Shown here piece after piece: positions 6,587 to 53,563 of a stretch of 64,000 nucleotides of DNA; position 1 is the stretch's first letter; each line of letters begins with the position of its first letter. Below the pieces are notes generated by a model that searched no databases, was not told the origin of the DNA, and saw only the letters and a program-made list of their open reading frames with translations. The stretch covers positions 3,433-67,432 of the IMG/VR virus record IMGVR_UViG_3300020016_000006. One strand, given 5' to 3'. The position numbers were made by a program, and so were the translations under genes. Origin of the DNA: a virus (Duplodnaviria > Caudoviricetes).

Positions 6587-7321
6587 ATGGCATTTGATCT
6601 TGAAACTGCGACTGATGAACAGAAGCTGCTTGTTCTCCGTGGGTATTGTGCACGTCCAACACGCAATCCAGCAGCCAAAGGGCCATACTGTACACAGAAT
6701 GCTGGACATAAGACAGATCACGCTGGTGAAGGAGCATGTTGGCTGCATGGTGGGAACAATCGCATTAAACATGGACGATTCAGTTCAGTTAAGCATACCA
6801 GGCTGGCTGATCTCATTTCAGAGATGGATGAAACAGAAGATCCACTCAACACGTTGCCTGAAGTGGCAGCCACCAGAGCACTCCTGGTTGATCACATTAA
6901 CAGATATGATGAATTTACAGCTGCGCTGATCGCATGGCATGAATCATACATGGCTGGTGTTCCGACACCCAAACTGTTCGCTTCACTTGAATCCATAATG
7001 GAGATGTTGGAGACCAATTGTACTGAAGCTGAACTGAAACGCAACAAAGATTATCAGACATGCCTCAAGGCTGTGATGTCCTATAAGAGCTCAAATCCAA
7101 AGCCAATTCAAATTCTTGATATCGCAGACTCAATGAGATTGCTTAGTGAAGTCACCAGGATGGTGGAGCGCATTGGAAAGTCCATGTCCATTAACGCAGT
7201 GGGCAGGCGTGATTTCCAGCGCATCATGCTGGAGATTGGAAACATCATTGACCAATGCGTCAGCAGCGATCGTGAAAAGATCAAGATCAGAGACAAAATT
7301 GCGAATCTCAGATTGGCCTGA
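6587..7321 (+). CDS. terS: terminase small subunit (HGG-motif family)
   Basis: C-x-GHKTDHAGEGACWLHGG-NRIKHGRFS motif typical of HGG-type small terminases; helical C-terminus; GGAG RBS before ATG 6587. Confidence 0.7.
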   Translation: MAFDLETATDEQKLLVLRGYCARPTRNPAAKGPYCTQNAGHKTDHAGEGACWLHGGNNRIKHGRFSSVKHTRLADLISEMDETEDPLNTLPEVAATRALLVDHINRYDEFTAALIAWHESYMAGVPTPKLFASLESIMEMLETNCTEAELKRNKDYQTCLKAVMSYKSSNPKPIQILDIADSMRLLSEVTRMVERIGKSMSINAVGRRDFQRIMLEIGNIIDQCVSSDREKIKIRDKIANLRLA

Positions 7322-7331
7322 TGCAGTGAGG

Positions 7332-7351
7332 TGCAATGGTGCACTGATGCA
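7332..7351. repeat. 20-bp TGCA-rich element TGCAATGGTGCACTGATGCA, copy 1
   Basis: Identical copy at 58325-58344. Confidence 0.8.
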
Positions 7352-7426
7352 CTGATCATCCAATCCTAATGGTTCAATTATGCTGAATGGTCAACTGCTA
7401 TCCAGCATAATTGAGGCAATGGGGTG

Positions 7427-7476
7427 AAAAGAAAAACAAAAGGCCATGGGCACCAGATCATCGGTGCCCATGGCCT
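7427..7476 (-). terminator. intrinsic terminator of the minus-strand wHTH gene
   Basis: 14-bp stem AGGCCATGGGCACC/GGTGCCCATGGCCT with A-tract on the + side, just after the TAA. Confidence 0.85.
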
Positions 7477-7483
7477 CAAGTGT

Positions 7484-7918
7484 TTACTTCACCTCAGCAG
7501 GAGTGTCCTTCGCCTGATCCCGCATCGCGATCACCGCGGTCCTGACCGCCTTGGCCTTGTCGCTGGCCTTGGCATCGTTCTCGGCAATCACGAACCGATA
7601 CTCACTGCCGATACGAATGGCGTCCAGGATGCCCGCCTCTCCCGCGCTGATCCCGAAGTACCTCACCGTCACATCACGGAGGCCGGTGGCAGCCACAAGC
7701 TCGCTGACCGTTGATCCTGCGCCCTGACGAATGGCGTCCCAGACCTTGCCTTCACGGAGAGGATTGATCCTGCCCTCTGCGAGCGCCTTTGGGTCTGGGC
7801 CGGTCTTGCCGTCCTTGCGTGCTGGGGTGGCCTTGCTGTAGGGAGCGACGGTGACCGTGGGAGTGGGGGTGGTCTCGGTGACCACAGGCTGGGTGCTGTT
7901 CTTCTTGTTGCGCTTCAT
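7484..7918 (-). CDS. winged-HTH-like protein, TG/CA-rich copy (paralog of 8535-9011)
   Basis: ATG at 7918 after AGAACGGGAG RBS; VWDAIRQGAGSTVSELVAATGLRDVTVRYF..LDAIRIGSEYRFV wHTH-like pattern. Confidence 0.85.
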   Translation of the reverse strand: MKRNKKNSTQPVVTETTPTPTVTVAPYSKATPARKDGKTGPDPKALAEGRINPLREGKVWDAIRQGAGSTVSELVAATGLRDVTVRYFGISAGEAGILDAIRIGSEYRFVIAENDAKASDKAKAVRTAVIAMRDQAKDTPAEVK

Positions 7919-7994
7919 GGTGTTCTCCCGTTCTTGTTGAGTTATCAAAGAGCACTTGGCTCGGGCCAGGGGATCGTCCCCCGACCTAGGTACT

Positions 7995-8040
7995 AATCTA
8001 CGTTGCCTCAGAAAAAAGCGAAACCCGAATAGTACCCGAA
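7995..8040 (-). promoter_or_regulatory. promoter TTTCGC-N17-TAGATT with two TCGGGT boxes upstream
   Basis: Inverted repeat of 8334-8363; 17-bp spacer; points into the 7918 gene. Confidence 0.7.
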
Positions 8041-8058
8041 GTGTTTTCGCCTTCACTC

Positions 8059-8255
8059 AAAACTCGAGCATGGAACAAAATTGGTGATTGGTGGTGAATG
8101 CCACTGTGCGATGCCAAACACCACTGTGCGACCAATGCCTAATGGTTGAATGGTCCATGGTTGGTGGGTGGGTGGTGGGTGTGTGGGTGGCCCTGGTGCC
8201 TGTGGACGTTGGGTTTTGAAGTTGTAGGATCAATCTTGTCGCATGCTCGAGTTTT
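8059..8255. repeat. 14-bp inverted repeats (AAAACTCGAGCATG) enclosing a TG-rich core with CCACTGTGCGA x2 and a G-tract
   Basis: 8059-8072 vs 8242-8255; direct repeats at 8101 and 8121. Confidence 0.8.
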
Positions 8256-8323
8256 GCGCGACAATTTCCACTCGACAATTTTGATCGCGACCGAGAACAA
8301 CTCGCGTTAGTCTATCGGACAAC

Positions 8324-8379
8324 TCGGGTTTAATTCGGGTACTATTCGGGTTTCGTTTTTTCCGAAGGATTCGTACTAT
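8324..8379 (+). promoter_or_regulatory. promoter TTTCGT-N17-TACTAT with three TCGGGT boxes at 11-bp period
   Basis: -35 8351-8356, -10 8374-8379; boxes at 8324, 8335, 8346. Confidence 0.75.
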
Positions 8380-8534
8380 AGTCTCGTCGCTCCGCGAAAT
8401 TCGGAAGCCTCCCCCGCGAGGGAAGTAGCCGAGCGACCCGATAGCCGAGCGGGCGCGGTCCCGAGCTAGGCGAACGAAAAACCGAACCCTCCGAGACGGG
8501 CCGCTCCCGTCTCGGTTAACTCCGAGGAGGCTAT

Positions 8535-9011
8535 ACGAAAAACCGAAAGAACCGCGCGACCCGCGCCCCCGAGACGCCCGAGGCTCCCGAGGCCGTAGCT
8601 CCCGAGACGCCCGAGGTTCCGACCGTAACCGTCGCTCCGTACTCGAAAGCGACCCCCGCCCGTAAGGACGGAAAAACCGGACCCGACCCGAAGGCGCTCC
8701 GCGAGGGTCGGATTAACCCCCTCCGCGAGGGTAAGGTTTTCGCGGCGATCCGGGCGGGCGAAGGCTCGACCGTCGCGGAGTTAGTCGCCGCTACCGGACT
8801 CCGAGACGTAACCGTTCGCTATTTCGGAATTTCCGGCGGCGAGGCGGGGATTCTCGACGCTATCCGAATCGGTAGCGAGTACCGGTTCGTCGTTTCCGAA
8901 ACGGACGCGCTAGCGAGCGCGAAGGGTAAGGCCGTAAGGACGGCCGTAATCGCCCTCCGAGACGCGGCGACCGCGACCCCCGCTCCGAGTACCCCCGAGG
9001 CGGCGAAGTAG
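8535..9011 (+). CDS. winged-HTH-like protein, TG/CA-free copy, ACG start (not in ORF track)
   Basis: GAGGAGG-CTAT-ACG; 158 codons to TAG; 100/114 aa identical to the 7484-7918 product; no M, W, C, Q or H. Confidence 0.9.
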   Translation, partial: TKNRKNRATRAPETPEAPEAVAPETPEVPTVTVAPYSKATPARKDGKTGPDPKALREGRINPLREGKVFAAIRAGEGSTVAELVAATGLRDVTVRYFGISGGEAGILDAIRIGSEYRFVVSETDALASAKGKAVRTAVIALRDAATATPAPSTPEAAK

Positions 9012-9018
9012 CTCCTAC

Positions 9019-9045
9019 GGGCCGCTAGGGCGATCCTAGCGGCCC
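9019..9045 (+). other. intercistronic hairpin GGGCCGCTAGG-GCGAT-CCTAGCGGCCC
   Basis: Perfect 11-bp stem between the two island ORFs. Confidence 0.7.
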
Positions 9046-9073
9046 TCCCGCTCCCCTTAGCTTAGGAGGCTAT

Positions 9074-9229
9074 ACGCGCTACCCCTATCTCGGACTTCCG
9101 GCCGCTCCGAGCGTCCGCGAGTCTCTAGAGCGGGCGGCGGAGATTATCGCCCGCCGGATCGTTTCGGAAATTCGATTCGTCCCCGTCGCCCGCGACCTCC
9201 CGCCCTACTCGGGCGAGGACGGTTCGTAA
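9074..9229 (+). CDS. 51-aa hypothetical protein, ACG start (not in ORF track)
   Basis: Same GGAGGCTATACG context as 8535; RYPYLGLPAAPSVRESLERAAEIIARRIVSEIRFVPVARDLPPYSGEDGS then TAA. Confidence 0.75.
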   Translation, partial: TRYPYLGLPAAPSVRESLERAAEIIARRIVSEIRFVPVARDLPPYSGEDGS

Positions 9230-9239
9230 AAACCGAAGG

Positions 9240-9268
9240 GGGGTAGCCGAAACGGCTACCCCTTTTTT
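9240..9268 (+). terminator. intrinsic terminator GGGGTAGCC-GAAA-CGGCTACCCC-T6
   Basis: GC stem with U-tract closing the island. Confidence 0.9.
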
Positions 9269-9354
9269 ACGGGCGGGGAGGGTGCCCCCTCCCACATGCA
9301 GGATGAAATCTGAAACATTTCAGCCATGAACTTTTCATTGATCACCTATGAGTC

Positions 9355-9383
9355 TTTTGTTTTCCCCGAGTGTTCTATAGCTT
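9355..9383 (+). promoter_or_regulatory. candidate promoter TTTTGT-N17-TAGCTT
   Basis: 17-bp spacer, -10 identical to other phage promoters; upstream of ATG 9393. Confidence 0.5.
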
Positions 9384-9392
9384 TATTTTATT

Positions 9393-9551
9393 ATGATCCG
9401 ATACAAAATTTGGTTTGAGCCGAGTGATGACAGTATAATGATGGGCACCACCCCAAGCCAACGAGCCACGGTGCTTCAAGAGTTTATCGCATATACATGG
9501 GAAGAAGCCTTACGCACCTTTGCTCGTTGGAGATCCATACGATTAATCTGA
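9393..9551 (+). CDS. hypothetical protein (52 aa, possibly near-leaderless)
   Basis: MIRYKIWFEPSDD...; ATG about 10 nt after the -10. Confidence 0.5.
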   Translation: MIRYKIWFEPSDDSIMMGTTPSQRATVLQEFIAYTWEEALRTFARWRSIRLI

Positions 9552-9851
9552 GCAGGTTGCGATTAGACGGGCGTGAGATTGCGGTGTGCCACCCCAACAC
9601 GGCCCATGAGATCACGAACAACCCAGAAGTGTTCGATGAACTTATGAGGACACTGCAATGCCACGAGGATGTAACTGTCCGCTTGAAGCCATCCTAGCGC
9701 GTTTGCTCCTGAGGATGACGGATAGGATGCGAGGATGGCAGATCGCTCGGCGCACTGGCCGGCGTAATGATACATTAACAATCATTGACAGGTGTGACAT
9801 TTGCAACCAGCAGTACACTTTAACCTTCACCCCCGACAGGAGACATCCAGA

Positions 9852-10013
9852 ATGAAATACCTCATCATCGCCATCCTACTGCTGCTCCCCGCTACGGGTT
9901 GCTCCGCTCCAACTGAGCCAGGCATCAGCAACTTTAATCCCCCACACAGTATCCAAGCCCTCAATCGGCATAAGCCACCCCCACCCCCACCCGACCCATG
10001 GGAGATAAGGTGA
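9852..10013 (+). CDS. small lipoprotein-like protein
   Basis: MKYLIIAILLLLPATGC signal with lipobox; Pro-rich tail. Confidence 0.6.
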   Translation: MKYLIIAILLLLPATGCSAPTEPGISNFNPPHSIQALNRHKPPPPPPDPWEIR

Positions 10014-10357
10014 ACCGACGCCAGGCGCTCAAACCCCTGCTCCTTCTCCCAGCTGTGGCGATTAGCTGTGAGGAACTACAACCCACCACTTCACAAGCAC
10101 TTGTGCCCTTTAAGTTGAATGCTGAGGGGGTGGGGTTTGCCCGAGACCGGAATGGAGACGTTCACCCAATCCACAATCCCCTTCTTGTACACCAAGTGGG
10201 CGATATTCGTCTTGATGGCCGGAAGCGGGAATATGTTCAAGAATTCAATACAGAAAAGGGTTGGATCCGGCAGGGGCTAGATAAGGATGATTTCTCCAAA
10301 TCGGGGCTTCATGAAGTGGTTTCCTACGGCAAAGTCACGGTGGAGTGGAGATCATGA
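10010..10357 (+). CDS. hypothetical protein with Tat/lipoprotein-like signal
   Basis: GTG start; NRRQALKPLLLLPAVAISC. Confidence 0.65.
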   Translation: MNRRQALKPLLLLPAVAISCEELQPTTSQALVPFKLNAEGVGFARDRNGDVHPIHNPLLVHQVGDIRLDGRKREYVQEFNTEKGWIRQGLDKDDFSKSGLHEVVSYGKVTVEWRS

Positions 10358-10647
10358 AAGAGAATGATGAGACGTACTACATGCTCCATACTGTCAACCG
10401 ACTGATCTTTGAGATTGATACATCAGAAGGCGACCGCATCTGCACCCTGCTCGACAAGCTCTCTGATAACATAATTTTGCCGGGAGATTCGGTTCCAGAT
10501 CCAATGTTTATCAATTTCACTGATCGCGCTGGATCAGATATTCGTGTTCGTGCCGCGCATATTGAGGCATTGTTTACCTCCAGCCCTGCCTCTCGTGCAC
10601 ATGACAAAATGGTTGAAGAGAGGGACAAAGACTGGTCTAGTCCGTGA
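10354..10647 (+). CDS. hypothetical protein
   Basis: GGAG RBS, ATGA overlap. Confidence 0.7.
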   Translation: MKENDETYYMLHTVNRLIFEIDTSEGDRICTLLDKLSDNIILPGDSVPDPMFINFTDRAGSDIRVRAAHIEALFTSSPASRAHDKMVEERDKDWSSP

Positions 10648-37222: not shown

Positions 37223-38698
37223 GTGGACTTCTATACGACACCATTTGATTATCAAGCAGAGGACTGGGAGCTTACAAAGGATAAGCTCACATGGGCCTAT
37301 TTTTGGGGGCCAGGGTTAGGCAAGTCATGGATCAACTTAAATCTTGCCAGGTATCACTTTGAGGCCGGCCGCATTGATGCGATGCTTATCACAGCGCCCA
37401 ATGGCGTTCATGCAAATTGGATAACTGATGAAGCCCCAGCTCACCTTCCTCCTGGCTTTCCATGGGAGGGTATGATCTGGTGGCCGGCAGTGGTATCGCA
37501 TCACTGGCATAATGGTGTAAAGGAGAACCTACGAGAGTTTGTAAATCAGAAGAACAGACTCTTGATTCTCGCCACAAGCTATCACGCATTTCTTCAAGAT
37601 CGTTCATGGGCAATCATTAAGCAGTTTCTCCAAGAGCGGAAGGTTCTGTGGGTGCTCGATGAGTCAGACGATATTGGCAATCCTGATGCACTCTGGTCAG
37701 ATCGTATTCTGCGACGCGCCCCTCTTGCGGTGTTACGTAGAATCGGAACTGGTTCAGCATATAAAGATGGTAGTCCCTTACCATTCTGGAGTCAGTTCAG
37801 CTTCCTTCATCCAGACATTATTGGAATACCAAAATATCGCGCCTTCAAGCTGAAGTATGCAGAGTGGTACATGAGGCCATTGCCGAACAAGCCATATCCG
37901 CAGATGATCCCTGTAAAGGACAAACGTACCGGCCGGCAAAAGTTCAAGAACCTGGATGAGCTGAAAGAGAAAATCGGGCGTCGGACAAGTTGGCGCTCAA
38001 CCGAGGAGCACCTGAAGTTTCTTCCTGAGAAGTTGTACAACAAGCGATATGTCGAAATGACGCAAAAGCAGGCGGAGGTGTATGATCGGGTCCGCGATGA
38101 ACATGAGTTAGAGTTTGGTGATGGATTCGTCAGGCTGATTGAAATAGCAATGATTGTTCGACTTCGACAACAGCAAGTGGTTTGTGGGTTCTATCCTCGG
38201 GATGGTGAAGAGCCGGAGAAGCGCATTGAAGGGCCGCAACTTCGATTGGAGGCCACTGTTGATGAAGTGTTACGCGATCCTGGGCAAGTTATCGTGTGGT
38301 CGAGATTCAGGATTGATGTCACTGACTTGGTCAGACTCCTTGAACCACACGTTACGGTTGCGCGTTATGATGGTGGAGCATCCGCACGAGAAAAACAAGA
38401 GGCCAAGGAAGCGTTTCAGGGACGCAAGCTTAAAGTGTTGGTTGCAAATCAAGCAGCAATGGGTCGGGGGCTCACATATATTACTAGCCATCGCGCTATT
38501 TTTCACAGCAACTATGATAGACTCTTATTGCGCGAACAAGCCGAGGGCCGACAGCATCGCCCCGGCCAGCATAATGCCGTGCTTTATACTGATATAGTGT
38601 GCCAGCAGACAACTGATGAAAGTACGATACGGGCACTTCGCTCAAAAATGAATGTTGCGGACTACCTTGCGGGCAGGCCGCATAAGGAATGGATATGA
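37223..38698 (+). CDS. SNF2-family (SF2) helicase
   Basis: GPGLGKS, LDESD, GRGLT..EQAEGRQHRPGQ. Confidence 0.9.
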   Translation: MDFYTTPFDYQAEDWELTKDKLTWAYFWGPGLGKSWINLNLARYHFEAGRIDAMLITAPNGVHANWITDEAPAHLPPGFPWEGMIWWPAVVSHHWHNGVKENLREFVNQKNRLLILATSYHAFLQDRSWAIIKQFLQERKVLWVLDESDDIGNPDALWSDRILRRAPLAVLRRIGTGSAYKDGSPLPFWSQFSFLHPDIIGIPKYRAFKLKYAEWYMRPLPNKPYPQMIPVKDKRTGRQKFKNLDELKEKIGRRTSWRSTEEHLKFLPEKLYNKRYVEMTQKQAEVYDRVRDEHELEFGDGFVRLIEIAMIVRLRQQQVVCGFYPRDGEEPEKRIEGPQLRLEATVDEVLRDPGQVIVWSRFRIDVTDLVRLLEPHVTVARYDGGASAREKQEAKEAFQGRKLKVLVANQAAMGRGLTYITSHRAIFHSNYDRLLLREQAEGRQHRPGQHNAVLYTDIVCQQTTDESTIRALRSKMNVADYLAGRPHKEWI

Positions 38699-39063
38699 AT
38701 ATTGATAATCGTCGGGCGAGAGTCTACGTCACTCAGAAGCCGCCCACGGCCCGTCAAGGGAATCTGGTGTATTTCCATATTGATCTTACGCCAGCTTCAA
38801 AGTTGGGTGATATCCATTTCCTCTCCAATCGTGGGGATGTTGAACGAGGTACGGTACAATCCTTGCTCTGGGCATTTAGGTCAAAACTCAAAGAATATGA
38901 TTGTGAGAAGGATTACATCCTTCCGATTGGGCACACAATCACAATGGCAATCGCAGCGATCGTTGCCGCTGAAAATGGCCAGGGAATGATTCAGATCCTC
39001 CAATGGGACAAGAGGATTCGGGAGTATGAAATTTTCAAGTTGGACCTTCATGCACAACCATAG
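38689..39063 (+). CDS. conserved phage hypothetical protein (small Rossmann-like)
   Basis: DYILPIG..LQWDKRIREY pattern often seen beside phage SNF2 helicases. Confidence 0.6.
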   Translation: MDMNIDNRRARVYVTQKPPTARQGNLVYFHIDLTPASKLGDIHFLSNRGDVERGTVQSLLWAFRSKLKEYDCEKDYILPIGHTITMAIAAIVAAENGQGMIQILQWDKRIREYEIFKLDLHAQP

Positions 39064-39074
39064 GAGAACGGGAG

Positions 39075-39731
39075 ATGAGTACAATTAAGCGAGTTGCGGA
39101 TGTAGCACAACATGTTATTGATCTACAATATCAGATACTGAATCTGGAAACTGAACTGAAGGAAAAGAAAAAGGAGCTACGCTTCATTACTGAGTTTGTT
39201 CTGCCTGATGAGACAGATAGCCTAGATTGGAACAAGAGCATTATGCGGTACGATCCTGGTGGTGATGTTGTGACGATCAACCTTCCCAATGGTCATATTC
39301 TCGCCATTGCAGAGGAGTTTCACCCCCACACCCCCAAGAAGGACAATGAGAAGAGGGAGGCCATTCTTGACTGGGTTGAGGGTCACGGCGGTCAGGATTT
39401 ACTTACACTCGACGTTTCGCTATCCTTCCGGCGCGGCGAGGGAAAATTAGCCCGCAAGGTTCTGGCGGCGCTGGACGGAATCCCCGAAGCCAAATACACC
39501 AAAGAAAAAGGCATTCACCACGCACTCTACCAGACATTCTGTCGTGATCTGATTCGTAAGGGTCAAGATCTGCCTGAAATGCTGGGAGTGTTCAACCGCC
39601 GAGTTGCGAAGGTGGCCGAAACACAGCACTCTGAAATTCGCAAAGAGCACAATGTCCCTGAGTGGACACAGCCCGAAAAGCGTAGAGGTGTTCCTGCTGT
39701 TAAACGAGGTGAAGAAGGGTATGGGGAATGA
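39075..39731 (+). CDS. replication/recombination-associated protein
   Basis: Coiled-coil N-terminus, between helicase and SSB-like gene. Confidence 0.55.
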   Translation: MSTIKRVADVAQHVIDLQYQILNLETELKEKKKELRFITEFVLPDETDSLDWNKSIMRYDPGGDVVTINLPNGHILAIAEEFHPHTPKKDNEKREAILDWVEGHGGQDLLTLDVSLSFRRGEGKLARKVLAALDGIPEAKYTKEKGIHHALYQTFCRDLIRKGQDLPEMLGVFNRRVAKVAETQHSEIRKEHNVPEWTQPEKRRGVPAVKRGEEGYGE

Positions 39732-40024
39732 TCACTCTGGAGACGCTGAAGCGCATTCCTCAGTTTACGGCCGTCCGTGAGTCCATGCGACATACATTAA
39801 AGGTTCACGGCGCTCAATGTGTTCGTGGAATGCTTGATAATTTTACAATTGATGTTTGGGATAAACCACTTGCAGACTGGATCTTTTTTGCTGAAGATCA
39901 ACAGACGCTTAATCATCGAATCAAGGCACTTTATCTTGTAGTTGAAGAGTGGGAATCGAGTCTTGATCAGGGCGGACTCGACAAACAAAAACCGGCCCTG
40001 AACAATTTACCCCAGGGGGGTTAG
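39728..40024 (+). CDS. hypothetical protein
   Basis: In-operon ORF. Confidence 0.6.
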   Translation: MITLETLKRIPQFTAVRESMRHTLKVHGAQCVRGMLDNFTIDVWDKPLADWIFFAEDQQTLNHRIKALYLVVEEWESSLDQGGLDKQKPALNNLPQGG

Positions 40025-40028
40025 CACA

Positions 40029-46855: not shown

Positions 46856-46999
46856 GATATCCATTTCAGATTAAACTTGATGTAAATTGGAAATGGTGGG
46901 AAGTGGGCTTCGGCATTAACTTTGGAACATATGATGAATGGTTCATTACCGTCAGTATCGGGCCTTTCATGTTAACAATTGGCTGGCAGGAGAAAATTT

Positions 47000-47350
47000 A
47001 TGAACCTCAAGAACTTTAGTCATGTCAATCGGTTACGTTGTGAACACCCGGAAGGGTTCAATCACAACTTAAATGATTGGTCACTTTCCGATTGGTTCAC
47101 TGCGATGCTAGGTGAATTTGGAGAGGCAGCGAATGTTGCGAAGAAACTCAACAGGTTTCGCGACGGCATCCGTGGTAACAAAGAAACCAAGGAGCAGCTT
47201 CAAGAACAACTGGAAGATGAACTCGCGGATGTCTTCATATATCTTGATCTTCTTGCTCAGCGTTCTGGATTTGATCTTAGTGATGCGGTTGTAAGAGTAT
47301 TTAACAGGAAGTCTGATTCTCTGGGCTGCCAAATAAAACTCGCACCCTGA
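47000..47350 (+). CDS. MazG-like NTP pyrophosphohydrolase
   Basis: GEFGEAANVAKK..EDELADVFIYL..FNRKS. Confidence 0.85.
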   Translation: MNLKNFSHVNRLRCEHPEGFNHNLNDWSLSDWFTAMLGEFGEAANVAKKLNRFRDGIRGNKETKEQLQEQLEDELADVFIYLDLLAQRSGFDLSDAVVRVFNRKSDSLGCQIKLAP

Positions 47351-47356
47351 TGGGTA

Positions 47357-47385
47357 TTTACTTTTCCCGCTGATGCACGTAGGTT
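47357..47385 (+). promoter_or_regulatory. putative promoter TTTACT-N17-TAGGTT
   Basis: Followed by CAAGAACGGGAGAACACC, identical to the leader of the 7918 gene. Confidence 0.65.
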
Positions 47386-47436
47386 CTCTATACGCGCTCG
47401 GGGCGAGCGACCGAACCCAAGAACGGGAGAACACCA

Positions 47437-47646
47437 ATGTATACCGTCACCGACTATAAGACCAAGAAGGCACTCAAAGAAGATGTTAAGGCAGGAAAGC
47501 AAGTCAAGGTGTATCAGCCAAACAATATGGGATTTTCCATTCCGACAGATGGAGTTGTTGACTTAGAAGGTCCGCACTACCCCAAGCCTCATACGTGGTA
47601 CGCAGCAGCGACATTGAAGAATGGAATTGTTGTTTCAGTGAAGTGA
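47437..47646 (+). CDS. conserved small phage hypothetical protein
   Basis: KTKKALKE..LEGPHYPKPHTWYA. Confidence 0.75.
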   Translation: MYTVTDYKTKKALKEDVKAGKQVKVYQPNNMGFSIPTDGVVDLEGPHYPKPHTWYAAATLKNGIVVSVK

Positions 47647-47655
47647 GAACGGGAG

Positions 47656-48336
47656 ATGACTGAGTTCATGGCCGACTATCTCTATTACACAGTATCAGAT
47701 GATCCCAGCCAAAAATTTGGGATCAGCGTGAAAGGTTTCACCCGGCGCAATCGGGCAGAAATCTTTGCCAAGACGGCCAAGAATCCCATTATCATTCGCT
47801 ACTCCAAGGTTGAACTGTCTCGACTCAAGATGGGACAGTTAATGAATATCGTGCGCACCGGAAGGGATGATGCGCCGAAGGTAACGCAGATGGGACGAGA
47901 TGATCTTGTCCTAGCTGCGTATGGCTGCCTTTGGGCGGCCTGTGTACGCACTGGGACGTTACAGCCACATGATCCCAGTGACTCTATCATCAACGAGGAG
48001 AACGGACAGATGGCGAAGAAGAACACTGGCGGCGACACCGCCACGGCAGAGGCTCCCGCGGGCAACGTTCGTCAGATGCGTGGTGCGAAGAAGGCCACTG
48101 GCGAGGGCGCGACGGCTGAGAAGCCCAAGCGTGAGGCCAAGCCGGATGAGTATGCCGGGAAGCGCATCAGCCTGGTGAGCAAGGACAACCCTCGGCGCGA
48201 GGGCACCCACGGCCACCGCTCCATGGAAGTGGTTCGCAACAAGCCCGGCATCACCTATGAAGATTACATCTCGGGTGGTGGCCGGCGCGTTGACCTGAAG
48301 GGCAGCATTGAGCTTAAGCAGGTGGAGCTTAAGTAA
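47656..48336 (+). CDS. putative DNA-binding protein with likely internal start at 48010
   Basis: GAGGAG RBS before ATG 48010; Lys/Ala-rich tail then NPRREG..TYEDY..DL domain. Confidence 0.65.
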   Translation: MTEFMADYLYYTVSDDPSQKFGISVKGFTRRNRAEIFAKTAKNPIIIRYSKVELSRLKMGQLMNIVRTGRDDAPKVTQMGRDDLVLAAYGCLWAACVRTGTLQPHDPSDSIINEENGQMAKKNTGGDTATAEAPAGNVRQMRGAKKATGEGATAEKPKREAKPDEYAGKRISLVSKDNPRREGTHGHRSMEVVRNKPGITYEDYISGGGRRVDLKGSIELKQVELK

Positions 48337-49302
48337 GTGCTGATCGTCGGTGCTGGGATGGCCGGCCTGCTGGCGGGGCATATACTCCGCCGGCACCGGC
48401 CACTCATCGTGGAAGCGCAGGAGTCCTTGCCAAATAACCATGCGGCCCTCCTGCGCTTCAAGACGCCGAAAGTCTCAGAGGCAACGGGCATCCCCTTCCT
48501 CAAGGTCTATGTCCGCAAAGCAGTTATGACAAGCAAGGGCCTTTCCGACCGGCCGAGTCTTGCGGACAATAATGAGTATTCAATCAAGGTAACTGGCGAA
48601 GCACTCGACCGATCAGTACTTGATCTGAGTCCTGGCGAGCGATATATTGCTCCTGAGGATTTCATAAGTCAGATGGAAAGTAATCTGAACATCCAGTTTG
48701 GGTACAAGTGGAATCCAACTCGGGATGAGTTTGATATTAATCAGCCCGAGGATGGCACGATCATTAGCACTGTTCCGATGCCGACACTAATGAAGATGGT
48801 TGAATGGCCGGCGATTCCTGAGTTCAAGCATAAGCGAATATGGACCGTTACGGCATATGTTGAAGATCCACCAGCCAGTTTGTACCAGACAATTTATTAT
48901 CCAGACCGGAGGCGTGACTACTATCGAGCCTCTTTGACGGGCAACCGCCTCTCATTAGAATACATTCAGTCAGTAGAGAGGGAAATAGCACAGATGGATG
49001 TGATGAAGGTTCTGGATGATTTCGGAATCTATCATCCAAAATGGAATATGAAGCCGCTTATTCATTATCATGAAGAGTATATCAAAGCACAGTTTTACGG
49101 TAAGTTGCTTCCAATTGATGAGATGGAGCGTAAGGCATTCATCATCGGGATGACGGATAAGTATGATATCTGGAGCCTCGGGCGATTCGCTACATGGCGA
49201 CAGATTCTCCTTGATGATGTAGTAGATGATGTGAAATTCATTGACCGCGTCGTTACCCAGAAGGATCAGTATCACCGCCGAATGCACCACCACAATAGCT
49301 AA
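48337..49302 (+). CDS. FAD-dependent oxidoreductase/mutase-like protein (UDP-galactopyranose mutase-like)
   Basis: IVGAGMAG dinucleotide-binding motif; C-terminal GRFATWRQ..DDVV like Glf GR..Y motif. Confidence 0.7.
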   Translation: MLIVGAGMAGLLAGHILRRHRPLIVEAQESLPNNHAALLRFKTPKVSEATGIPFLKVYVRKAVMTSKGLSDRPSLADNNEYSIKVTGEALDRSVLDLSPGERYIAPEDFISQMESNLNIQFGYKWNPTRDEFDINQPEDGTIISTVPMPTLMKMVEWPAIPEFKHKRIWTVTAYVEDPPASLYQTIYYPDRRRDYYRASLTGNRLSLEYIQSVEREIAQMDVMKVLDDFGIYHPKWNMKPLIHYHEEYIKAQFYGKLLPIDEMERKAFIIGMTDKYDIWSLGRFATWRQILLDDVVDDVKFIDRVVTQKDQYHRRMHHHNS

Positions 49303-49443
49303 CAACAGCCGGCTTCGTGCCGGGGGAGCGACCAATATGTGGCGTGAATTCCTAACCATCATGGGGATCATCTACGCCTGCTCGTTCGCGCTGGCACTCG
49401 TGTACCTATTGATCGGCGCACTGGCCGGGAAGGTTCATGTCGA

Positions 49444-49686
49444 ATGAATATCCAAGAGGCATTGGAAAAGAAACGGCAAGCCAAAAAGTGGTTTCGCAGT
49501 CTTACTCGCGAGGCATTGCTAGAGTTTCTTGCCGATACAGCATATCGTCTTAATGAGCTTGAAGGGGCCGCGATACTTGAAAATGAAAATGATGAAGAGT
49601 TTAGCAATCATATTCTCGACGCAGTGGAGAATGTAAATGCTGCGTATAAGGCAGAAACACGTTCTGAACTCCCGGCATTAACATGA
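49444..49686 (+). CDS. hypothetical protein
   Basis: In-operon ORF. Confidence 0.6.
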   Translation: MNIQEALEKKRQAKKWFRSLTREALLEFLADTAYRLNELEGAAILENENDEEFSNHILDAVENVNAAYKAETRSELPALT

Positions 49687-50663
49687 CAGTCAAGTTGCTA
49701 ACCTATACACCTGATGCGCTAGATATCATGCTGATGACGAAGCAGACTCGGCTGGATTTTAACCCCGAGATGCTGGAGGAGATTCGGCAATGGCCGATGG
49801 AGCAGAAATTGAAGGAACTGGCGTACATGCGTGGGACTATTCAGAGCAGTTGGGAATTTGTGGATTATACTTTTTTGTTGACGGGCGTATCGCGGGCCTT
49901 TACTCATCAGTTTGTTCGGACGCGACAAGGTTCCTACGCGCAGCAATCGCAGAGAACAGTAGACATGCAGGGATTTGATTATCTGGTCCCGAATGAGCTT
50001 CGGGAGAAGGATCTGGGTGAGGATGATTCTCCGCTTACCAAGACATCCGAATACGGGATTGATTTTCTTGACTTGGATGAGACGGTCAACACATCCCCGG
50101 ACATGTCCAGCGGTAGAAATTGGTATGATTGGGGAATGCTCGCCGCTGAACACGCCTATGCCAAGATGCGCGAAAAGGGAGTCAATCCTCAAGATGCGAG
50201 GGGTGTCCTTCCAACAAATATCGCTACAAATATCGTGGCGAAGTTTTCATTACGTGCCCTCTCAGATATGGCCAAGATCAGGCTTTGCACTCGCACTCAG
50301 GGTGAGTATCAAGACATCTTCCGCGAGATGCGTAAGCGAGTGATTGAAGTTCATCCTTGGGCCGAGCAGTTCATAGAAGTCCACTGCGTGGCGCTCGGGG
50401 TGTGTGCGTTCCCAAATTATATGGAGTGTCCAATTAAGGGTCCGCTCCTGAACCCTGAGACGGGACTTCGATGGGATGAGGCTCAGACCAAACGGACTCT
50501 CACAATACTTCCCAATCCTGAGAATGGTCTCAAGGACAAGATATTCCATACCATGGAGTATCCAGCTCACCCGGCTCCTCGGTGGTGGGTAAAGCAGAAG
50601 TGGGAGGAGCTACGGTATGAGGCTGTGCCGAAGCAACATAAGAACGAAGGGGAAGTACCATGA
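49683..50663 (+). CDS. thyX: ThyX-like flavin-dependent thymidylate synthase homolog with atypical RTR motif
   Basis: VSRAFTHQFVRTRQGSYAQQSQR, PQDARGVLP, R.CTRTQGEYQ. Confidence 0.85.
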   Translation: MTVKLLTYTPDALDIMLMTKQTRLDFNPEMLEEIRQWPMEQKLKELAYMRGTIQSSWEFVDYTFLLTGVSRAFTHQFVRTRQGSYAQQSQRTVDMQGFDYLVPNELREKDLGEDDSPLTKTSEYGIDFLDLDETVNTSPDMSSGRNWYDWGMLAAEHAYAKMREKGVNPQDARGVLPTNIATNIVAKFSLRALSDMAKIRLCTRTQGEYQDIFREMRKRVIEVHPWAEQFIEVHCVALGVCAFPNYMECPIKGPLLNPETGLRWDEAQTKRTLTILPNPENGLKDKIFHTMEYPAHPAPRWWVKQKWEELRYEAVPKQHKNEGEVP

Positions 50664-50842
50664 GGTTCCCACCGCATGAACCTTGGTTTGTGTATTATCT
50701 TCCCGATAAAGGATGGTGTATGATAGCTGCTTATGGCAAGGGAGAAAATGGTTATTACAAAGCTACGCAGCAATCTAGAATATCCAATAAGGAGCTAGGA
50801 AATGTCCCGGATTCCGGGGCTAGTCGGGTCCGTCCGAGATAG
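50660..50842 (+). CDS. hypothetical protein
   Basis: ATGA overlap. Confidence 0.45.
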   Translation: MRFPPHEPWFVYYLPDKGWCMIAAYGKGENGYYKATQQSRISNKELGNVPDSGASRVRPR

Positions 50843-50881
50843 AGACGCAGCTGCATACAGGCGCCTAGGAGGCTGAAAAAC

Positions 50882-51352
50882 GTGCTTTCGACCCCCGCGA
50901 CCGTTCCGCCCGCGACTATTTGGGCAATCATAGACTTGGACGGTACTCTTTGTGATATTACCCATCGGCTTCACATTCTTTCGGAGCCAAAAAAGAAATG
51001 GGCCGAGTTTCATGCATTACTTGTAGATGATATTCCCAATTTAGCCATTAGTATCATCATGAGAGCAATCCGAGGATATGGAGTTCGCATTGCGCTATGT
51101 ACGGGCCGGCCTGAGGAGTATCGAGATGAGACAATGGATTGGCTAAGAAAACACGCTATTGATTGGGATCGTCTTTTGATGCGCCCTGAGGGGAATTATC
51201 AATCTGATGACCTCGTTAAGCCAGCCCTCGCGGCCGACGCAGGGCTAACAAAGGATAATGTCCTTTTCATAATGGAGGATAGAGACAAAATGGTCCGCAT
51301 GTGGAGACAGCTAGGCTTCGTATGCTTTCAGGTTCAGGAGGGAGCATACTGA
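50882..51352 (+). CDS. HAD-family phosphatase (PNK-phosphatase-like)
   Basis: DLDGTL, TGRP, K.., EDR motifs I-IV. Confidence 0.88.
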   Translation: MLSTPATVPPATIWAIIDLDGTLCDITHRLHILSEPKKKWAEFHALLVDDIPNLAISIIMRAIRGYGVRIALCTGRPEEYRDETMDWLRKHAIDWDRLLMRPEGNYQSDDLVKPALAADAGLTKDNVLFIMEDRDKMVRMWRQLGFVCFQVQEGAY

Positions 51353-52137
51353 TGAAGAAGGATCAAATTTCTGGAATGTACATAAAGGATCAGAAGAAAC
51401 AACATGATTACGCGGTGCGGATTGTTCGCGCCCCCTCGCATCGTACCGCAGTCGTCACCGGCGCAAGCAAGCGAGGAAGTATCGGTCAGGCCATTGTGGA
51501 GATGCTTACGGGAATACCATACCACTCGATTCACTATCCTGCTGAATATCAACTTGACGTCACGAATCCAGATCAGGTTGAACGATACTTTACAAGTCTC
51601 GCCGGAATGGATACGCTTATCTGTTCTCATGGTGTAAATGCGATGTCGTGGTTTGAGAATATGAGCATTATGGATATAACCAGAATTATTGATGTAAATC
51701 TAACAGGATCGGCCATTGTGGCTCATTCCTTCGTGAATCGTACACTTGGACTCCCGTGGCGTAAACAGATCATCTTTATCGGGTCCATGGCGTATAATCA
51801 CGTGCTGAATGCCTCGGCTGCTTATTGCGCGAGTAAAGCAGGATTGGCAATGCTGACACGGTGTCTCGCTTGGGAATTGGCACCGAAGGGATATGATGTC
51901 TTCTGTGTTCACCCATCCAATACGGAGGGTGCGCCAATGACTGAGGATACAATCCAAGGCATCATGTCATATAGAAATGTCCCTCGGGAGGAGGCAGAAG
52001 GATACTGGGGTGCGGTACTGCCGCGCCATCGTTGGCTCCAGCCAAAAGATATTGCGCGAACGATTGAACATCTTCTCAAGGATGAATCGGGGTATCTTTC
52101 AGGGGCCAATCTTGAACTCGCGGGAGGTCAGCGATGA
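51352..52137 (+). CDS. short-chain dehydrogenase/reductase (SDR)
   Basis: TGASKRGSIG, VNLTG, GSM, YCASK. Confidence 0.9.
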   Translation: MKKDQISGMYIKDQKKQHDYAVRIVRAPSHRTAVVTGASKRGSIGQAIVEMLTGIPYHSIHYPAEYQLDVTNPDQVERYFTSLAGMDTLICSHGVNAMSWFENMSIMDITRIIDVNLTGSAIVAHSFVNRTLGLPWRKQIIFIGSMAYNHVLNASAAYCASKAGLAMLTRCLAWELAPKGYDVFCVHPSNTEGAPMTEDTIQGIMSYRNVPREEAEGYWGAVLPRHRWLQPKDIARTIEHLLKDESGYLSGANLELAGGQR

Positions 52138-52670
52138 GGCCTGATATGTCCATTCGGTATGCTGATGCACGCCGTGCGATTGCGGAGCATCTAGCGCACA
52201 CCGTCGTTAGTCGCTTGGCGATGCGGTTTGCTTATTCAGCCGATCTACCTGATGCCCCGCCGGGTATGACCCCAGTCATGAATAATGATGATTTACGGAA
52301 TTATGAAACTGAACTAACGGCCATTGCTGTACAAGACTTAAAATTGCTTGGAGAAGTATTTGGCGATGTGTTCCTTCAGTATAATGGCATTGAACCAACT
52401 GATTCTAATTTAGCACAGTTTAATGTCTTCATGGAAGCTATGTCACTCTACGATGAGCGCAATAAAAGATACAAGGATCAGTGGAAGGAATCTGGTTGGA
52501 TGGGCGCTCTCTATGATATACGCAAAAAGGCGGCAAGGTTGTTTCGTCAATTCTTTGGTGAAGAACCAACCGAGGGCGCCAGTGAGGATGACGCATGGGA
52601 TCTCATCAACTTCGGCGGATTCTTCATCCGTGGACGACGGGAACAAAACAAGTGGGGGAATTGGCTGTGA
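52134..52670 (+). CDS. DUF1599 / nucleotide-modification-associated domain 1-like protein
   Basis: ERNKRY.DQW...I.KK..RL...ED...DLINF. Confidence 0.7.
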   Translation: MRPDMSIRYADARRAIAEHLAHTVVSRLAMRFAYSADLPDAPPGMTPVMNNDDLRNYETELTAIAVQDLKLLGEVFGDVFLQYNGIEPTDSNLAQFNVFMEAMSLYDERNKRYKDQWKESGWMGALYDIRKKAARLFRQFFGEEPTEGASEDDAWDLINFGGFFIRGRREQNKWGNWL

Positions 52671-53563
52671 TTAATGATGATATCTTCCGAACGATGAGCC
52701 TTGGGATTATTCTGCCATCAAATAATCCTGATGACTACTTCACGAAATTCAGCCCGAGCCTTCCATATCTCAGGAGTGGACTAGAGCGATTGGATATCAA
52801 GATTCTTATATGTGCCCAAGAGCCATGGACTGAGGTAAAACTCGCAGAGGCAAAATATATTGCCATGAGTGAAGGTTTAGATTTGCGAGCTATTCTTCAC
52901 TCCGCTGAATCACCTCCGAGAATGTGTTACTTTCGGCAGCAAGCGGCGAATCTCTTTCCCAATGCATCAATCTACATGCTCGCAGATGATAATATGAGCT
53001 TCTATAAGGGACTTGGAACAGAGGAGATTCCACATGGACTCACCAGCGGACGATGTTACGCCGAAGTCCTTGACTATATGTTCCATTATCCCCGGTGCGG
53101 ACTTGTACAATGCCATACGACAGCACCAACAGGATTTGGCCGTAGCATCAGACCTACTAGCAATGGCCTTATCACCACTAACAAAGGCTTATTCATCCGC
53201 AATCTCAATAGAGGCTACCTGTGGCCACAATGGTCCTGGTCGTTCAAGTCCTCTCTTGAAGAGACTATTGCGGGATATAGAGTGCTTGATCAGGGCTACT
53301 TCCCAGCCAGACAGCATCAGAATCCGACAATACACACCATCCACAAAATAGGCGACGACGACGCACTACATAGTCATGATCTGATTTACGCAAATGCCGG
53401 GAGATGGGTGCGAGAGTTTTATCAGTCGCCTGAGTGGGATCACCAAGATGGACTCTTTCCTGAAATGCTAATTGATTCGGCAGTTAAGAATGCACCTATG
53501 GACGAGGTGACATTTTTCTCGGCTAACCCTCGGTTCATCAGGCGGTATGATGATATTAGCTGA
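52667..53563 (+). CDS. putative GT-A fold glycosyltransferase
   Basis: IILPS beta1, RQQAA..IYMLADDNMSF metal/NDP-sugar motif region. Confidence 0.55.
   Translation: MINDDIFRTMSLGIILPSNNPDDYFTKFSPSLPYLRSGLERLDIKILICAQEPWTEVKLAEAKYIAMSEGLDLRAILHSAESPPRMCYFRQQAANLFPNASIYMLADDNMSFYKGLGTEEIPHGLTSGRCYAEVLDYMFHYPRCGLVQCHTTAPTGFGRSIRPTSNGLITTNKGLFIRNLNRGYLWPQWSWSFKSSLEETIAGYRVLDQGYFPARQHQNPTIHTIHKIGDDDALHSHDLIYANAGRWVREFYQSPEWDHQDGLFPEMLIDSAVKNAPMDEVTFFSANPRFIRRYDDIS

Follow-up and report, generated by a model that had tools for sequence, protein, structure and literature searches.

A predicted winged helix-turn-helix protein of an uncultured soil phage is encoded by twin genes, one of them in an operon devoid of TG and CA

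The stretch of DNA analyzed here (henceforth the window) comprises 64,000 nucleotides of an uncultured soil phage (Caudoviricetes; IMG/VR record IMGVR_UViG_3300020016_000006, positions 3,433 to 67,432), and contains two genes for the same small protein, along with an island of 962 bp in which neither TG nor CA occurs even once. The island has the organization of a complete operon, with a putative operator, a predicted promoter, two genes and a terminator, and its first gene is a paralog of an ordinary gene encoded on the opposite strand nearby. The features of this locus, along with those of a distal candidate modification module, are collected in Table 1.

Table 1. Features of the twin-gene locus and of the candidate thymine-modification module (positions are those of the window; promoters were inferred from the sequence)
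Position	Strand	Feature	Details
7440..7477	-	Intrinsic terminator of the ordinary copy	16-bp stem containing CCATGG and GGCAC, followed by a T-run
7484..7918	-	Ordinary copy of the predicted wHTH protein	144 aa; ATG start behind GGGAG; TAA stop; 62 TG/CA; contains M, W and Q
7995..8040	-	Predicted promoter region of the ordinary copy	22-bp element TTCGGGTACTATTCGGGTTTCG at 8040-8019, overlapping the -35 TTTCGC (8023-8018); 17-bp spacer; -10 TAGATT (8000-7995)
8063..8251		Inter-twin spacer	Bounded by the inverted repeat CTCGAGCATG / CATGCTCGAG (8063-8072, 8242-8251); extremely TG-rich on the + strand (33 TG in 161 bp); two CCACTGTGCGA boxes (8101-8111, 8121-8131); G-run tract (8159-8190); the same features occur in relatives
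8321..9282		Island	962 bp with zero TG/CA; GC 65%; 154 CpG; from about 30 bp upstream of the -35 to 14 bp past the terminator
8334..8379	+	Predicted promoter region of the island operon	Identical 22-bp element (8334-8355); -35 TTTCGT (8351-8356); 17-bp spacer; -10 TACTAT (8374-8379)
8526..8537	+	Predicted translation start signal of the island copy	GGAGGCTAT-ACG; in-frame TAA 6 codons upstream; no ATG, GTG or TTG possible in the island
8535..9011	+	Island copy of the predicted wHTH protein	158 codons from ACG; TAG stop; 0 TG/CA; no M, W, C, Q or H
9019..9045	+	GC-rich hairpin after the island copy	11-bp stem; no T-run, so probably not a terminator
9065..9229	+	Second island gene	Same GGAGGCTAT-ACG signal (9065-9076); 51 codons; TAA stop
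9240..9268	+	Intrinsic terminator of the island operon	10-bp GC stem followed by TTTTTT; no TG/CA
46979..53563	+	Candidate thymine-modification module	MazG-like protein (46979-47350); FAD/NAD-binding protein of phrog_4828 (48337-49302); ThyX-like protein with RTR instead of RHR (49683-50663); HAD_PNKP phosphatase (50882-51352); SDR (51301-52137); GT-A-like lead (52595-53563); upstream of the epsilon exonuclease and DnaE; syntenic with Pbunavirus and Wifcevirus

The observation made in the preliminary description, namely that one protein is encoded once in TG/CA-rich and once in TG/CA-free DNA, was confirmed at the coordinates and with the content given there. BLASTP aligns the products of the two genes at 98/115 residues (85%, E 1e-69), whereas a codon alignment gives 101/118 identical core residues, so that the earlier count of 100 of 114 is essentially right. 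Only 34 of the 101 identical residues use the same codon, and nucleotide identity is 70%. The reported W>F, Q>A, M>L and Q>A replacements in the island copy are all present, as are the absence of M, W, C, Q and H, the TAG stop and the contrast between the two terminator stems. However, the W>F replacement is not strictly forced by the island, as had been implied, because the ordinary copies of three relatives already have F at that position. The island is the only TG/CA-free gap longer than 60 bp in the window, and the only one longer than 56 bp in the whole 67.4-kb contig. About 110 TG/CA are expected from its own base composition, with a minimum of 83 in 2000 shuffles, and back-translation of the island protein with the codon usage of the phage gives a mean of 52 and a minimum of 34 in 5000 trials, thereby excluding chance.

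Seven lineages from independent metagenomes (JGI, ENA and Logan samples) carry the same pair on a single contig, with the copies inverted in five lineages and in tandem in two. Each has an ATG copy with M, W and Q, and a second copy without M, W, C, Q and H that starts, as inferred from the sequence, at ACG behind (G)GAGG and is free of TG/CA, or near-free in one lineage (L008). The island of the present phage is identical in a second soil sample and study, and contigs bridge the locus in two runs; these contigs bear on neither depth nor expression, and the fragmentation of the island in sample S2 cannot be interpreted. In contrast, no relative was recovered in a nucleotide search of the locus or a tblastn search with the twin protein against 50,697 phage records, or in scans of IMG/VR with the protein and with the alignment, which returned only the record itself. 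Most island copies had not been called as genes at all, and two had been called only as over-long ORFs from upstream starts.

Codon-based comparisons, which had been proposed beforehand as a check, indicate that both copies are protein-coding genes under purifying selection. Between the twins the Nei-Gojobori pS is 0.756 (saturated) and dN is 0.21, placing dN/dS far below 1. Island copies compared between phages give dS 0.49-0.77, dN 0.12-0.14 and dN/dS 0.18-0.24, while ordinary copies compared with each other give dN/dS 0.18-0.30. In a phylogenetic tree the terminal branches of the island copies are no longer than those of the ordinary copies, but the tree does not decide between one ancient duplication and lineage-specific co-evolution: the pair of lineage L004 groups together weakly (77/90), and monophyly of the island copies is not rejected (AU p 0.22). 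The dinucleotide ban is itself under selection. One third of all point mutations would create a TG/CA, yet islands that differ at 175-358 aligned positions contain none. In six of the seven lineages none of the changes created a TG/CA, whereas L008 tolerates six CA, all inside GTAGCA, which a pure dinucleotide rule does not predict. The constraint acts on DNA rather than on codons, as cross-codon and intergenic TG/CA are likewise absent, and the ban covers 55-190 bp upstream of the predicted -10 in every lineage and ends just after the terminator. Nor is this a case of general restriction-site avoidance, because 13 of the 14 palindromic tetramers that lack TG/CA (GATC, GGCC, CCGG, CGCG, GCGC, TCGA, CTAG, AGCT, GTAC, ACGT, AATT, TTAA and TATA) are present in the island, with only ATAT missing. 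We also considered and rejected a CRISPR PAM (TG) or a codon/tRNA-level explanation, because the ban is confined to one operon and includes cross-codon and non-coding positions.

That ACG is the start codon is inferred from several lines of sequence evidence. In-frame stops lie 3-6 codons upstream in four lineages, the KNRKN residues following the ACG are conserved, and the equivalent position is occupied by ATG in the ordinary copies and by GTG in L013, a relative with a single copy. The Shine-Dalgarno-ACG signal is conserved at both island genes in all lineages. In E. coli, ACG falls in the class of codons that initiate at 0.1-1% of AUG (bioRxiv 10.1101/063800). There is no tRNA gene in the window, and hence no private initiator tRNA for ACG; the leader of the island mRNA folds no better than shuffled sequences (z -1.46), and a search of positions 7300-9500 against Rfam found no family. 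The 22-bp element is identical at the two predicted promoters and occurs nowhere else in the window. In lineage L003 both promoters carry the same lineage-specific variant, the two being 24/31 identical to each other against 13-17/31 to other genomes. On this basis the two copies are likely to be under shared control, although binding of the protein to this element is inferred only from these identities.

The protein is predicted to be a winged helix-turn-helix (wHTH) DNA-binding protein. An AF2 model of the ordinary copy (pLDDT 83) shows three helices plus a wing followed by a long C-terminal helix, and the top Foldseek hits in the PDB are overwhelmingly wHTH proteins (probability up to 1.0, E about 0.01-0.1), with VIA Z up to 7.2 over 64-77 residues. 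At the sequence level neither copy matches a curated family above threshold: the only Pfam hit is DUF3489 at 13.3 bits against a cut-off of 29.5, and PHROGs gives none. The 51-aa product of the second island gene likewise has no match above threshold in either collection, and a tblastn search with it against the contig found no twin. A profile search linked the domain of the twin protein to the N-terminal domains of bacterial proteins, distant homologs (profile E 4e-9 to 1.5e-4), that carry HNH_2 or NOV_C nuclease domains. The conserved N-terminal motif GPDP..AL..G.INP.REG is shared only with a few proteins, some fused to HNH_2, NOV_C or TerB domains. The twin proteins themselves have no nuclease domain and thus do not conform to modification-dependent (type IV-like) nucleases with an N-terminal reader domain, while the HNH-fused homologs sit on contigs too short for their contexts to be informative.

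Published work provides a possible reason for a ban on TG. Thymine hypermodification targets TG in phages M6, ViI and phiW-14 (PMC6449724), in Acinetobacter phage 15599 (PMC13458397), and in Pbunavirus F8 and 14-1, where about a quarter of T is replaced by sugar derivatives and no known modification genes are present (PMC12191111). The present phage shares with Pbunavirus a module comprising the phrog_4828 FAD protein, the ThyX-like protein, phosphatase, exonuclease, DnaE and MazG-like protein in the same order, although which genes make the modification is not established in the literature examined. Its ThyX-like and FAD proteins have homologs in about 290 Pseudomonas phage records and in 27 Escherichia phage records, and the gene order matches that of Pbunavirus Ab28 and Wifcevirus WFC. 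In contrast, the 5-hmdU DNA kinase domain (HMUDK_hel, PF18723), the hallmark of the classical thymidine hypermodification pathway (5-hmdU, DNA kinase, aGPT-Pplase), was not found in a six-frame search of the contig, which is 73% complete, and the only Walker-A proteins detected are helicases. PF18722, PF18724, PF18725 and PF18726 are other families than the pyrophosphorylases (MazG_C, ADDT, HEPN) and have no bearing on this question. Searches of PDB sequences with the FAD and GT-like proteins found nothing.

The analysis establishes that one small protein, predicted to be a winged-helix DNA-binding protein, is encoded twice with both genes under purifying selection, that the second copy sits in a self-contained operon, and that selection removes every TG/CA step from that operon on both strands, including its non-coding and apparently non-transcribed parts, leaving no canonical start codon, with ACG behind a perfect GGAGG as the predicted start of both genes, and five amino acids unavailable. 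What follows is inferred, as are transcription of the island, initiation at ACG and the chemistry of the DNA of this phage. Our tentatively favored explanation, which we hold at somewhat less than even confidence, is that the virion DNA carries a thymine hypermodification directed at TpG, of the sugar-derivative kind measured in Pbunavirus, and that the island is the only operon that stays chemically ordinary DNA. That would let it be read at once by the host RNA polymerase, or be invisible to nucleases that sense hypermodified bases, or both, and it would act as the bootstrap of the infection. In this view, because ACG is a poor initiator and the amino acid alphabet is restricted, the island copy would be a weak, slightly compromised starter, and an ordinary ATG copy with W, Q and M would be kept beside it, under the same operator, to supply the bulk of the protein once modified or progeny DNA is being expressed. 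Certain observations weigh against this proposal. Pbunavirus Ab28 has the same gene module but no TG/CA-free island (largest gap 77 bp), and hence the island is not an automatic consequence of the module. Likewise, the two promoters carry the same 22-bp element and are of the same -35/-10 type, so that nothing in the sequence shows different timing. The absence of the hallmark 5-hmdU DNA kinase domain from the 73%-complete contig and the CA tolerated inside GTAGCA in L008 also count against it. Thus, the interpretation in the preliminary description was only partly supported: that both copies are selected protein-coding genes is upheld, whereas the idea of a two-state pair, readable from parental modified or attacked DNA and from progeny DNA respectively, receives only indirect support from the TG specificity of known modifications and the shared module.

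A bolder version, possible but less likely than not, is that the island is a chemically clean boot sector with its own start signal and a 15-letter amino acid alphabet, and that the twin genes form a switch that reports or exploits the modification state of the template, be it parental modified against fresh progeny DNA, or intact against nuclease-attacked DNA. This would be a natural example of one protein written in two DNA dialects for two chemical states of the same genome. If the hypermodification reading is right, hypermodified phage DNA carries a cost, either for transcription or through modification-sensing nucleases, that is large enough for phages to write a whole operon without a dinucleotide, giving up canonical start codons and five amino acids. 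The pair is a built-in controlled comparison, with the same protein, promoter type and genome and a difference only in TG/CA, and it makes the effect of TG-directed thymine modifications on gene expression and defence accessible to simple experiments. In practical terms, gene callers miss such genes, ACG-initiated genes behind a fixed Shine-Dalgarno context may be a recognizable class, and TG/CA-free stretches could be used to flag hypermodified phages in metagenomes, including relatives of the therapy phages Pbunavirus and Wifcevirus.

Of the alternatives, a reversal of the timing appears unlikely but accounts for the same facts, i.e. a strand-symmetric ban at the DNA level confined to one transcription unit and the need for two copies. 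Here a host nuclease or base-modifying defence, or a phage host-shutoff enzyme acting on TG, would attack or block TG/CA steps in unmodified DNA during infection, with the ordinary copy working before that event and the island copy remaining expressible after it. The link of the protein's domain to proteins with HNH_2 or NOV_C nuclease domains places the family in a conflict context; however, no TG-specific nuclease or modifier of unmodified DNA is known to us or was found in the contig, and the published TG specificity concerns the phages' own thymine modification. Somewhat less likely still is a constraint on the mRNA, which would avoid UG and CA to escape an endoribonuclease, such as a host toxin or a phage shutoff RNase, and would thereby resemble engineered ACA-less mRNAs that survive MazF. 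The ban does coincide with a transcription unit, and in L013 the depletion is asymmetric on the coding strand (CA 2 against 36 expected, TG 16 against 40 expected), which could reflect an mRNA motif. Nevertheless, this requires two independent dinucleotide bans where a DNA reading needs one, the ban extends in all lineages upstream of the predicted -10 and to the bases after the terminator, and the asymmetry in L013 fits avoidance of modified T on the template strand equally well; in L008 the tolerated exceptions are all CA on the coding strand.

Two further possibilities are very unlikely. The copies might have diverged at silent sites merely to prevent recombination between inverted repeats in a duplication kept for dosage or robustness, with the lack of TG/CA being incidental. 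Consistent with this, the copies are inverted in five lineages and about half of the silent differences (33 of 67) are not required by TG/CA avoidance, but it cannot explain zero TG/CA in the non-coding parts, the second gene and the terminator, the ACG starts, the loss of five amino acids, or retention of the ban through 0.5-0.8 silent substitutions per site, and it is contradicted by the shuffling and substitution statistics; moreover, the arrangement is tandem in two lineages. Alternatively, the island copy might be an untranslated decaying pseudogene, a DNA or RNA decoy, or an assembly or synthetic artefact, given that it has no canonical start codon and that no RNA run is known to contain the locus. 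This is contradicted by the low dN/dS and unexceptional branch lengths of the island copies, and weighed against by the conserved start signals, the intact frame in every lineage, and the natural divergence seen in independent assemblies from three data sources.

Among known systems, TG-directed thymine hypermodification is the closest, since the banned step, TpG on either strand, is exactly the preferred site in M6, ViI, phiW-14, Acinetobacter phage 15599 and Pbunavirus F8 and 14-1; however, those studies describe where the modification sits and not a genomic region written to escape it. A literature search for TG-free or TG-depleted regions in phages found nothing relevant in the collection searched, and the recoded twin pair appears new. 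Wifcevirus WFC, which has the same ThyX/FAD/SDR module, contains a TG/CA-depleted block (45 per kb against 143 per kb) inside its 3784-bp terminal repeat. Depletion there is about 3-fold and retains ATG, with about half of the 101 remaining TG/CA (22 ATG and 27 CAT) lying inside the triplets ATG and CAT, whereas in the present island it is absolute, the predicted starts are ACG and the main gene has an ordinary twin, for which no homolog exists among the isolated phages searched. The first-step-transfer (pre-early) region of phage T5, like target-poor early regions in general, is similarly a small early module kept free of the targets that matter before the phage's own protection works. T5 avoids particular restriction sites and its module lies in a terminal repeat that enters first, whereas here a whole dinucleotide step is banned and the module duplicates a gene that also exists in ordinary form; the locus lies on a linear, incomplete contig and is bridged by contigs, from which the genome ends cannot be placed. 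The predicted fold matches that of ArsR/MarR-type winged-helix regulators (Foldseek probability about 1, VIA Z 6-7), though with the distinctive N-terminal motif noted above. Finally, CpG suppression of RNA viruses against ZAP, and engineered ACA-less mRNAs that survive MazF, also involve coding sequences rewritten to lack a very short motif so as to escape a motif-directed factor. Those act on RNA and are genome-wide or engineered, whereas the present constraint, in our reading, acts on DNA, is confined to one operon and coexists with an unrestricted copy of the same gene.

The window is part of a linear 67.4-kb metagenomic viral contig that is about 73% complete. Counting the dinucleotides TG and CA along this contig gives about 150 per kb everywhere except in one stretch, an island of 962 bp that has none, whereas the next longest gap in the contig is 56 bp. 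About 110 TG/CA are expected from the base composition of the island itself, and the lowest of 2000 shuffles still had 83; the island is 65% GC and has 154 CpG. It reads as one operon, which begins with a 22-bp element, TTCGGGTACTATTCGGGTTTCG, that overlaps a -35-like TTTCGT and is followed by a 17-bp spacer and TACTAT. Then come a leader of about 145 nt, the signal GGAGGCTAT-ACG with a first open frame, a GC hairpin, a second GGAGGCTAT-ACG with a shorter frame, and a terminator. Next to the island, on the other strand, lies an ordinary gene that has an ATG behind GGGAG, its own strong terminator, and a promoter region with the identical 22-bp element followed by TTTCGC, a 17-bp spacer and TAGATT. 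This 22-mer occurs at these two places and nowhere else in the window.

Coordinates of the twin genes, their surroundings and the comparable regions of related contigs
Sequence	Coordinates	Feature	Details
Window	7484-7918	Ordinary copy of the gene	Other strand relative to the island operon; ATG start
Window	8063-8251	Spacer between the twin promoters	Bounded by the inverted repeat CTCGAGCATG/CATGCTCGAG; 33 TG in 161 bp on the + strand; two CCACTGTGCGA boxes
Window	8159-8190	Run of G-tracts within the spacer	Could form a quadruplex
Window	8321-9282	TG/CA-free island	962 bp
Window	8535-9011	First island frame (island copy)	158 codons from ACG
Window	9074-9229	Second island frame	51 codons from ACG
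Window	9240-9268	Terminator of the island operon	Stem plus T6
Window	38689-40859	Pam3 gp32/gp33/gp34-like proteins	
Window	46979-57499	Replication and nucleotide-metabolism module	Syntenic with Pbunavirus and Wifcevirus
L003	1565-2113	Both promoters of this relative	Lineage-specific upstream element
L004	3605-5157	Island and ordinary copies	Tandem
L009	250-2101	Island and ordinary copies	Tandem
L008	1521-2315	Island of a more distant lineage	Six CA, at about 1531, 1620, 1684, 1824, 2095 and 2222
L013 (UEXT01000284.1)	9745-10440	Single copy	GTG start behind GGAGGTATCT
L017 (Escherichia phage WFC)	1251-3500	TG/CA-depleted block	Inside an exact 3784-bp direct terminal repeat

The products of the ordinary gene and of the first island frame align at 98/115 residues in a BLASTP comparison (E 1e-69). 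In a codon alignment 101 of 118 core residues are identical, but only 34 of those use the same codon, and nucleotide identity is 70%. The ordinary coding sequence has 62 TG/CA and uses M, W and Q, whereas that of the island copy has none and lacks M, W, C, Q and H, with residues that cannot be written without TG/CA being replaced conservatively (W>F, Q>A, M>L and Q>A). Of the 67 silent codon differences 34 are required by the ban on TG/CA and 33 are not; the two copies are therefore old paralogues and not merely a recoding. The Nei-Gojobori method gives a pS of 0.756 (saturated) and a dN of 0.21 for the pair. The recognition-helix region, as read from the alignment and the structural model, is almost unchanged, so both products would be expected to bind the same DNA. 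The second island gene, in contrast, has no counterpart elsewhere in the contig. The relatives described below have a small ACG-started gene at the same place, but its sequence is poorly conserved, and only the phage under study (lineage W) and the lineage L006 share a PY.GLPAA...ES motif.

Protein searches recovered a very small family, with 6 proteins (including the query itself) in 5.8 billion clusters and 14 in 1.8 billion representatives. Examination of their contigs showed the same pair on one contig in seven lineages, namely W, L003, L004/L005, L006, L007, L008 and L009, which come from JGI, ENA and Logan assemblies of different samples, while an eighth contig, L012, holds an island copy only. 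In every case one copy starts at ATG and has 44-62 TG/CA, whereas the other lacks M, W, C, Q and H, has a predicted ACG start behind (G)GAGG plus four bases and has no TG/CA, with the qualification that the island of the more distant lineage L008 has exactly six TG/CA. All six are CA inside the heptamer CGTAGCA and fall in different reading-frame contexts, which represents either a tolerated context of the ban or a functional repeated motif. The orientation of the two copies is divergent in five lineages and tandem in two (L004 and L009), indicating that the pairing survives rearrangement. In the tree the two L004 copies group together weakly, which hints at co-evolution of the two proteins within a genome. 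Island copies compared with each other give dS of 0.49-0.77, dN of 0.12-0.14 and dN/dS of 0.18-0.24, and their terminal branches are no longer than those of the ordinary copies. A third of all possible point mutations in an island would create TG or CA; nevertheless, islands differ from each other at 175-358 aligned positions without a single such dinucleotide. Both the protein and the ban are therefore under continuing selection. The W island is also present, letter for letter, in a second soil sample of another study. In that sample (window 7553-9342, runs X3/X4) the assembly breaks into short, low-depth contigs within the island, with breaks near 8525-8530 and 9050-9120, while the flanks are on longer contigs; GC bias, low coverage or something physical are all possible causes.

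As no ATG, GTG, TTG or CTG can exist in the island, we examined the evidence for ACG as the start codon. In four lineages an in-frame TAG or TAA lies 3-6 codons upstream of the ACG, and the residues after it (KNRKN) resemble the N-terminus of the ordinary copies (MKRNKKN). Likewise, the same 12-mer precedes the second island gene, and in the single-copy relative L013 the homologous position is GTG behind GGAGG. ACG is thus the only plausible start, although initiation there is inferred from sequence alone. In E. coli, ACG belongs to the class of codons that initiate at 0.1-1% of AUG and gives an N-terminal Met (bioRxiv 10.1101/063800). No tRNA gene is present in the window.

An AlphaFold2 model of the protein, built on a 10-sequence alignment (pLDDT 83), predicts a disordered basic/Pro-Thr tail (residues 1-30), three helices and a beta wing (56-111), and a long C-terminal helix (120-138). 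The top Foldseek matches in the PDB are overwhelmingly wHTH proteins, mostly ArsR/MarR/Fur-type regulators (probability up to 1.0, E 0.01-0.1), and structure comparison with VIA gives Z up to 7.2, whereas no curated family matches. The profile search also reached bacterial or phage proteins in which the same N-terminal motif plus wHTH is fused to other domains. These distant homologues (P0008, P0013, P0014, P0015, P0017 and P0019) share the motif GPDP..AL..G.(I/F)NP.REG.. as the N-terminal part of longer proteins that carry HNH_2, NOV_C or TerB_N/TerB_C domains, and lie on contigs too short to show context. Such architectures are typical of DNA-sensing conflict proteins, but this is only a lead and not a function. 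Two facts argue that one factor, probably this protein, controls both promoters: the 22-bp element is identical at the two, and in L003 both promoters carry the same divergent, lineage-specific version, GG(T/A)AGCGTAC.G.ATAGG in place of ATTCGGGTACTATTCGGG, with 24/31 positions shared within that genome against 13-17/31 with other genomes. The two promoters thus co-vary within a genome. The spacer between the twin promoters is the most TG-rich DNA of the window, and its features recur in L003, L006, L007 and L013. Hence, the densest possible target for a TG-directed modification abuts the only target-free DNA.

The ban is strand-symmetric, ignores reading frames and includes non-coding DNA; in all lineages it starts 55-190 bp upstream of the predicted -10 and stops just past the terminator. 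This points to a property of double-stranded DNA across a whole transcription unit. It is not restriction-site avoidance in general, because 13 of the 14 palindromic tetramers that are free of TG/CA are present. The literature offers a specific candidate, as post-replicative thymine hypermodifications are placed mainly at TG. This has been described for M6, ViI and phiW-14 (PMC6449724), for Acinetobacter phage 15599, where TG sites are "almost fully occupied" (PMC13458397), and for Pbunavirus F8 and 14-1, where sugar derivatives replace about a quarter of T "in a TG motif" and no known modification genes are present (PMC12191111). The last of these, a preprint, also describes END nucleases, which attack hypermodified genomes early in infection.

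The contig lacks the classical kinase domain. However, it has a module of MazG-like, FAD/NAD-binding (phrog_4828), ThyX-like (with RTR in place of the RHR motif), HAD phosphatase and SDR proteins and a GT-A-like lead, just before the epsilon exonuclease and DnaE. The FAD and ThyX-like proteins have homologues in about 290 Pseudomonas phage records, of which those examined or named are Pbunavirus, and in 27 Escherichia phage records, of which those that we could place, such as WFC, are Wifcevirus. The gene order is the same in Pbunavirus Ab28 (L015/L016) and Wifcevirus WFC (L018), and these two genera are termed distant relatives in the BASEL paper (PMC11990801). We measured WFC and found a TG/CA-depleted block, with 45 per kb against 143 per kb genome-wide, inside its terminal repeat; about half of the TG/CA that remain there lie in ATG or CAT. 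In contrast, Ab28 has no comparable block.

Taken together, the sequence analysis establishes two selected genes for one predicted wHTH protein, a DNA-level TG/CA ban over one operon, conserved ACG start signals and shared promoter elements, and in this part we have high confidence. All that follows is inference. From the published specificity together with the synteny, we infer that the virion DNA carries a TG-directed thymine modification, so that the island would be the only unmodifiable operon. A further inference is that unmodified DNA is needed at the very start of infection, either because host RNA polymerase handles it better, or because modification-sensing nucleases cannot see it, or both. 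Beyond this, as the island copy would pay with a very weak start codon and a restricted alphabet, an unrestricted ATG copy would be kept under the same putative operator. The single-copy relative L013, whose copy lies next to the same terS-like gene and has no twin in the 10 kb upstream, fits a graded version of this view. It has a GTG start and partial, asymmetric depletion on the coding strand, with some TG (16 against 40 expected) but almost no CA (2 against 36 expected), that is, almost no TG on the template strand. We consider the whole chain of inference tentative.

Other explanations appear less likely. The timing might be reversed, with an attack on TG in unmodified DNA which the island survives, but we regard this as unlikely. 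An RNA-level ban on UG and CA, directed against an RNase, is somewhat less likely still, as the TG/CA-free DNA upstream of the promoter argues against it. Recombination-proofing of the duplicated gene, or a non-translated relic or artefact, are both highly improbable, since the statistics and the dN/dS values contradict them.

A literature search found no paper describing TG/CA-free regions in phages, which in a library of limited extent is not proof of their absence. The nearest concepts are the pre-early region of T5, which is target-poor, first-entering DNA, the suppression of CpG against ZAP, engineered ACA-less mRNAs, and the TG/CA-poor terminal-repeat module of Wifcevirus WFC. None of these combines an absolute dinucleotide ban over a complete operon, non-canonical start codons in a fixed context, a 15-letter protein alphabet, and an ordinary twin of the same gene. 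We therefore regard the pair as new in kind relative to these systems, with the mechanism remaining a proposal.
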